From NCBI RefSeq assembly GCF_003790525.1, contig NZ_CP033635.1: a DNA stretch of 64,000 nucleotides, one strand, 5' to 3'. Origin of the DNA: Escherichia coli (lineage in GTDB: Bacteria > Pseudomonadota > Gammaproteobacteria > Enterobacterales > Enterobacteriaceae). The position numbers were made by a program, and so were the translations under genes. The notes beneath the pieces were generated by a model that saw only the letters and a list, made by a program, of their open reading frames with translations, had not been told where the DNA came from and searched no databases. Positions 18,214 to 18,240 of this stretch are shown here, in pieces (positions within the stretch are counted from its first letter, which is position 1; every line of letters begins with the position of its first letter).

Positions 18214-18240
18214 TGGACGTCAATACATCTGGACATCTAA
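18214..18240. promoter_or_regulatory. metJ/metB divergent control region with tandem met boxes
   Basis: tggacgtcaatacatctggacatct contains tandem degenerate AGACGTCT-like 8-mers between divergent metB and metJ. Confidence 0.5.

Follow-up and report, generated by a model that had tools for sequence, protein, structure and literature searches.

Two very probable MetJ operators of the metJBLF cluster in an Escherichia coli genome and the break points of the variable spacer next to metF

The tandem octamers found between metB and metJ and upstream of metF in this E. coli genome are, judging from the sequence, almost certainly canonical MetJ operators of the metJBLF cluster. Both belong to the window, the stretch of 64,000 nucleotides of contig NZ_CP033635.1 (assembly GCF_003790525.1) analyzed here, in which the gene order is katG-metF-island-metL-metB<>metJ-yiiX-rpmE-priA. 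A sequence-only reading had already proposed MetJ operators at these positions and considered them expected biology. The proposal is supported by the identity with the K-12 operators, the distances to the genes, the conservation across genera, and an intact MetJ, and the site shared by metB and metJ is indeed textbook, being the published K-12 operator. Earlier work has described both operators, the repressor, the MetR motif, and the island; what is added here are refinements only, that is, the full extent of the arrays, two common SNPs in the metF operator, and the precise positions of the two breaks that bound the variable spacer. The methionine genes of the window are as follows.

5874-6764, minus strand: metF, methylenetetrahydrofolate reductase (ORF list and RefSeq annotation)
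14556-16988, minus strand: metL (ORF list and RefSeq), with the stop codon TAG at 14556-14558
16991-18151, minus strand: metB, cystathionine gamma-synthase, first gene of the metBL operon (ORF list; RefSeq of a 100%-identical record and of K-12)
18428-18745, plus strand: metJ, the MetJ repressor of 105 aa, 100% identical to K-12 MetJ

A megablast search with positions 5800-19000 gave matches in 5,425 of 5,426 complete E. coli genomes, the top match being strain EC17CM2, with 100% identity except for an IS1 insertion. K-12 has the same gene order as the window, with a metF-metL distance of only 348 bp. On the other side of metJ, the spacer to yiiX measures 59 bp in the window (18746-18804) and in the other non-K-12 strains checked and 183 bp in K-12 (L001 7004-7186), where it holds an extra segment of about 124 bp. 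An Rfam scan of the window found no RNA family in the met region; the matches above the gathering threshold were the L31 ribosomal-protein leader upstream of rpmE (19693-19745, minus strand), the ClpQY (hslVU) promoter element (24357-24414, plus strand), and the sRNA ES036/CssrF (39503-39544, plus strand).

Residues 2-105 of the MetJ encoded in the window match the PDB entries 1CMA, 1CMB, and 1CMC with E=1.4e-67 and 100% identity. One MetJ homodimer, of the ribbon-helix-helix type, binds per 8-bp met box (structure PDB code: 1CMA), and neighboring dimers touch each other, so that binding to tandem arrays is cooperative. The corepressor S-adenosylmethionine (SAM) raises the affinity of MetJ for DNA, the genes being off when methionine and SAM are high.

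The operator shared by metB and metJ consists of four boxes, three of which fall within the interval of the sequence-only reading; the octamers it reported are real, although the array was under-called. The string it had quoted, TGGACGTCAATACATCTGGACATCT, occurs once, at the positions it gave (18214-18238).

18215-18246, unstranded: MetJ operator of metB and metJ, four tandem met boxes, 31.18 bits with the published matrix
18215-18222: GGACGTCA
18223-18230: ATACATCT
18231-18238: GGACATCT
18239-18246: AAACTTCT

Compared with four repeats of the consensus AGACGTCT, the array matches 24 of 32 positions, 6 of 8 in every box. The 32-mer equals the published K-12 site ggacgtcaatacatctggacatctaaacttct base for base, and its distances to the start codons, 63 bp to the ATG of metB and 181 bp to that of metJ, equal those published for K-12. 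The K-12 metJ/metBL operator (Augustus & Spicer 2011, PMC3228920 Table S1) thus has the same 32 bp, the same distances, the same divergent genes, and the same repressor. The differences are four SNPs in the 278-bp metB-metJ intergenic region, none of them inside the array; the alignment of this region with K-12 has 99% column identity and no indels, with the array and its vicinity unchanged. Among 5,426 complete E. coli genomes, the exact 60-mer around the array is present in 4,129. Moreover, a block of 45 bp that contains the array, [A/G]GACGTCAATACATCTGGACATCTAAACTTCTTTGCGTATAGATTG, is invariant in E. coli, Enterobacter, a soil MAG, and Mangrovibacter, within an intergenic region whose mean identity is 76% and whose flanks are very variable. 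This footprint covers 5 taxa across 3 genera plus the soil MAG; three of the retrieved metF loci also hold metB and metJ, and these loci were chosen without selection on the metB/metJ operator.

For metF, the string quoted by the same reading, TAGACGTCCAGATGT, likewise occurs once and in the right place (6821-6835). The tandem octamers are again real and again under-called, since that interval takes in two of four boxes.

6806-6837, minus strand: MetJ operator of metF, four met boxes, 26.17 bits, 41 bp from the metF ATG; on the metF strand the boxes read TTACATCT, GGACGTCT, AAATGGAT, and AGATGTTC
6838-6845, minus strand: classical "fifth" met box of metF, CTTCATCT, a weak octamer with 4 of 8 matches to the consensus and -7.65 bits, overlapping the putative -10 hexamer

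Read on the metF strand, the four boxes match the consensus at 5, 7, 4, and 5 of 8 positions. The published K-12 site, ttacatctggacgtctaaacggatagatgtgc, is made of the octamers ttacatct, ggacgtct, aaaCggat, and agatgtGc, and 30 of its 32 bases are found in the window at the syntenic position, to be compared with 32 of 32 for the metB/metJ site. The K-12 operator shares the register, the four scored boxes followed by a weak fifth, the 41 bp to the ATG, and the -35 hexamer TTGACG, and the window differs from it by two substitutions, aaaCggat to aaaTggat and agatgtGc to agatgtTc. The first lowers box 3 from 5.01 to 3.62 bits and the second raises box 4 from 4.47 to 7.11 bits, so that with the same matrix the total is slightly higher in the window (26.17 bits) than in K-12 (24.92 bits). 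The allele of the window, with T in box 3 and T in box 4, is common to E. albertii, and the G in box 4 of K-12 looks derived because T is the state in most other genera. Of 5,426 complete E. coli genomes, 524 have the 60-mer around the array without any change; like the 60-mer of the metB/metJ site, it is an ordinary allele.

Conservation of the metF site was followed in an alignment of 18 sequences covering 200 bp upstream of metF (A3). The set comes from one scan of genome contigs with the 14-mer ACATCTGGACGTCT, in which most matches were chance hits in unrelated phyla, and only 17 enteric metF loci, identified by tblastn, were kept. The majority fractions of met boxes 1 to 4 are 0.98, 1.00, 0.93, and 0.86, where boxes 1 and 2 are conserved by construction, the loci having been retrieved with that 14-mer, and boxes 3 and 4 are independent of it. 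For comparison, the fractions are 0.91 in the ribosome-binding region, 0.71 in the promoter spacer, 0.70 in the leader, and 0.45 far upstream. As a separate observation, the RefSeq annotation of island-free genomes has a small hypothetical ORF of 44-81 aa antisense to the metF promoter and operator (K-12 L001 2541-2675). It starts inside the fifth met box, the equivalent ATG being at 6841 of the window, where the island junction truncates it; this ORF is probably an annotation artifact.

The operator of metF could also extend over five boxes (6806-6845), with CTTCATCT bound through cooperativity despite its poor sequence. A review counts five met boxes for metF, and by this count no other met gene would be as sensitive to SAM (PMC3274233). 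Also, the fifth octamer is in register, its region is highly conserved, and only 5 of 300 shuffles of the window attain the five-box score of 25/40. Against this, the octamer has a negative score with the published matrix, Augustus & Spicer list four boxes, and the -10 hexamer CATCTT, which overlaps it, accounts for its conservation equally well. On balance, a five-box operator is a real possibility, although a somewhat doubtful one.

The relation between the arrays and the transcription of the genes depends on the promoters, for which the following candidates were located.

18195-18223, minus strand: candidate metB promoter, -35 TTGACG (18223-18218) in box 1, 17-nt spacer, -10 TACTCT (18200-18195)
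18230-18259, plus strand: candidate metJ promoter 1, TGGACA-18-TAGATT, overlapping boxes 3 and 4, 9/12 in the promoter scan
18258-18286, plus strand: candidate metJ promoter 2, TTGAGC-17-TAAAAT, 9/12 in the promoter scan
6837-6865, minus strand: candidate metF promoter, -35 TTGACG (6865-6860), 17-nt spacer, -10 CATCTT (6842-6837)

The metB candidate scores 8/12 in a relaxed hexamer scan and both of its hexamers are invariant across genera (alignment A4), as is the metJ promoter block. For metF, the default scan for promoters and terminators found nothing upstream of the gene (6700-7200), and the call comes from the relaxed scan, where it is a weak match (8/12), together with the conservation of the hexamers in the 18 sequences (majority fractions of 0.97 for the -35 and 0.95 for the -10). 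All these promoter positions are putative. If they are right, the metB/metJ array would cover the -35 of the leftward metBL promoter and also the region from the -35 to the spacer of the rightward metJ promoter. Because the array overlaps elements of both promoters, one repressor filament on the four boxes would occlude both, repressing metBL and autoregulating metJ together. The metF array, in turn, would start at the -10 hexamer and run downstream across the likely transcription start, blocking RNA polymerase. Repression of this kind is what we infer for this strain.

The same overlap with the candidate -35 and -10 hexamers of metB, metJ, and metF could suggest that the octamer runs are kept only as promoter sequence (-35, -10, and discriminator) and are not MetJ operators in this strain. 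Contacts with RNA polymerase could indeed account for part of the conservation, and conservation alone cannot separate the two functions. However, the sites have the same or nearly the same sequence as K-12 sites that serve as known metboxes, their 8-bp register reaches well past the hexamers, and MetJ is intact and identical to that of K-12, which makes a promoter-only role highly unlikely.

Regarding the significance of the arrays, single AGACGTCT octamers with at most one mismatch are not enriched, 8 being found in the window versus 15.5 expected. The significance must therefore come from the tandem arrangement, and the search for single octamers was dropped as a test in favor of tandem-array scoring and the published matrix. 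When every position was scored against (AGACGTCT)n, the metB/metJ and metF arrays were the two best sites of the window for n = 3, 4, and 5. As a null model, the window-wide maximum was taken from 300 dinucleotide-preserving shuffles of the whole window. The four- and five-box scores of metB/metJ (24/32 and 28/40) were reached by none of the shuffles and two-box scores by 213 of them. The rule of Augustus & Spicer 2011 (PMC3228920) asks for at least one quarter of the consensus score in every box and for a sum of at least the consensus, 12.58 bits. The matrix as implemented gives the K-12 scores as published (31.2 and 24.95), and under the rule exactly two sites are called in 64 kb, 18215-18246 and 6806-6837. 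The sole perfect AGACGTCT octamer of the window is at 4981-4988, inside the katG coding sequence; it is put down to chance, as its neighboring octamers are poor (12/16 for two boxes) and it fails the array rule.

A MetJ operator is expected where a methionine-regulon gene has its promoter or leader, typically about 75 bp or less from the start codon, and here the arrays are 41 bp (metF), 63 bp (metB), and 181 bp (metJ) from the ATG. Both arrays combine tandem in-register repeats, a score that passes the matrix rule, this location, orthology to K-12, and a cognate repressor encoded in the window. That they are chance likenesses to AGACGTCT, as the counts of single octamers and the two-box scores would allow, has practically no probability left, since they are orthologous to the K-12 operators, their four- and five-box scores are the top two of the window and are rarely or never reached by the shuffles, and they lie at the published distances upstream of met genes and are conserved across genera.

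Beyond the MetJ operator of metF, two further conserved elements were detected in the A3 alignment.

6887-6899, minus strand: second conserved dyad, TGAT-TTTTC-CTCA, with TGAA-N5-CTCA in other genera
6906-6920, minus strand: MetR-type 15-bp palindrome, ATGAG-TTTTT-TTCAA in the window and ATGAA-N5-TTCAT in other genera

Among the conserved elements of the metF control region, the palindrome lies farthest out, and upstream of metF most of the 18 enterobacterial sequences in the alignment conserve one that fits the motif. The MetR motif ATGAA-N5-TTCAT has been described by Leyn et al. (2014, PMC4239095), with metF predicted to be a target of MetR in Enterobacteriales, and TGAANNNNNTTCA is likewise found in the literature for the published motif. 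The palindrome fits it, whereas the copy in the window matches 8 of the 10 specified positions and departs at two. The sequence of an E. coli metF MetR site does not occur in the supplements of Leyn et al. The motif match and the conservation suggest that MetR may bind at 6906-6920.

The homology to K-12 ends next to this palindrome, at 6920/6921, which is 83 bp past the four-box metF array and 75 bp past the fifth octamer. A comparison of the window with the full-island strain E166, the partial-island ST131, and two island-free strains shows a sequence shared from metF to 6914-6920 followed by complete divergence. The bases just outside the palindrome are CCATC in K-12 and other genera and TTAAG in the island forms, which places the break at 6920/6921. 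The sequence-only reading had located the metF operator at the left edge of the island, with the junction just distal to it. This stands in outline, but the junction is 83 bp away and the interval is occupied by the putative -10 and -35 hexamers and the two conserved TGAA-type dyads, so the break abuts the outer dyad and not the MetJ operator itself. On the right, the break coincides exactly with the stop codon of metL (14556); K-12 has TAA here and the window TAG. A search for direct or inverted repeats at the two island ends found nothing beyond a single 8-mer, and neither a target-site duplication nor an integrase signature was detected there. A junction-spanning 60-mer is covered over at least 80% in 1,828 of 5,426 genomes, the rest aligning only to about 6914, and 658 of the 5,426 cover at least 80% of the whole 13.2-kb query and hence carry the full island.

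The contents of the block between the two breaks are the following.

6921-14555, unstranded: variable metF-metL spacer, an accessory block of 7.6 kb delimited by junction alignments
7146-8705, minus strand: first UshA-like 5'-nucleotidase (Pfam/NCBIfam Metallophos and 5_nucleotid_C)
8832-9959, plus strand: 375-aa protein with no Pfam match
10189-11741, plus strand: middle UshA-like 5'-nucleotidase, frameshifted (Metallophos and 5_nucleotid_C)
11776-13401, plus strand: third 5'-nucleotidase (Metallophos and 5_nucleotid_C)
13479-14339, plus strand: Tsx-family porin (Pfam Channel_Tsx, E=4.9e-70)

The GC content of the island is 0.36-0.51, versus 0.55-0.59 in the flanks. Compared with E166, the middle nucleotidase gene has lost 1 bp near 11124 and is a pseudogene, split into ORFs of 320 and 162 aa; the EC17CM2 copy of this gene carries an additional IS1 that is absent from the window. 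The 375-aa protein has a single match, a weak one in NCBIfam (E=4e-4), in which its residues 74-136 align with the N-terminus of IS1 transposase. Partial-island E. coli strains have a version of this protein with just 72% identity, and in ST131 the 3' end of the gene overlaps the 3' end of metL. Directly after the metL stop, in island-specific sequence, there are two strong hairpins (14484-14547; MFE of -41.3 kcal/mol, z = -7.7) with stems of 13 bp, AACAAAAGCUGGC...GCCAGCUUUUGUU, and 9 bp, CCACCUCCU...GGAGGUGG, which probably terminate transcription in both directions, between metL and the convergent Tsx-like gene.

By location and gene content, the island matches GR 31 of the APEC strain BEN2908, a region of 7.8 kb between metL and metF that is present in other ExPEC too and for which nucleoside processing and uptake were proposed (PMC12928451); the comparison is with the published description. 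Both have the same insertion site, a Tsx-like porin gene of 861 bp, and three UshA-like nucleotidase genes of about 1.55-1.62 kb each. The window differs from GR 31 of BEN2908 in that the middle nucleotidase is a pseudogene.

Insertions have occurred repeatedly in the metL-metF spacer, a hotspot whose cargo depends on the lineage. In E. coli the site is filled in at least three alternative ways, E. albertii and Superficieibacter have other cargo there, and the short spacer is ancestral because the metL-metF distance is 200-230 bp in most other genera. In place of the island, K-12 has about 195 bp with a REP-like imperfect palindrome, tgccggattcgtcgtaaacgcttaatccggcc (L001 2690-2735), and this segment shows no homology to either island form. 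E. albertii carries upstream of metF a different ORF of 324 aa with no assigned function (L010 2110-3084). In Superficieibacter electus (L013 6990-7996), the 324-aa ORF is broken and accompanied by small membrane ORFs, and a 91%-identical homolog of the first nucleotidase of the island is found. The 375-aa protein of the island has no similarity to the 324-aa ORF of E. albertii, therefore the two lineages carry different cargo.

It could be asked if the replacement of the spacer subtly rewires the control of metF in island-bearing lineages. The basis for this would be the break one base outside the MetR-type palindrome, the two motif departures of the palindrome (ATGAG...TTCAA), and the first island gene (5'-nucleotidase, 7146-8705), which points toward metF; in addition, the 280 bp from this gene to the metF promoter showed no canonical intrinsic terminator. 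In that case, metF could receive read-through transcription from the island and its control by homocysteine and MetR could be weakened. We consider such rewiring improbable. The metF control region is whole: the block extends from one base beyond the MetR-type palindrome to the metL stop, and its 7.6 kb replace only the nonregulatory part of the metL-metF spacer.

Finally, methionine-repressor control of metBL, metJ, and metF looks intact in this strain, as far as the operators and MetJ suggest, which has little import beyond annotation. The accessory block of nucleotidases and porin sits next to metF without disturbing any of its conserved regulatory elements, and its exact break points may help the study of the metL-metF insertion hotspot.
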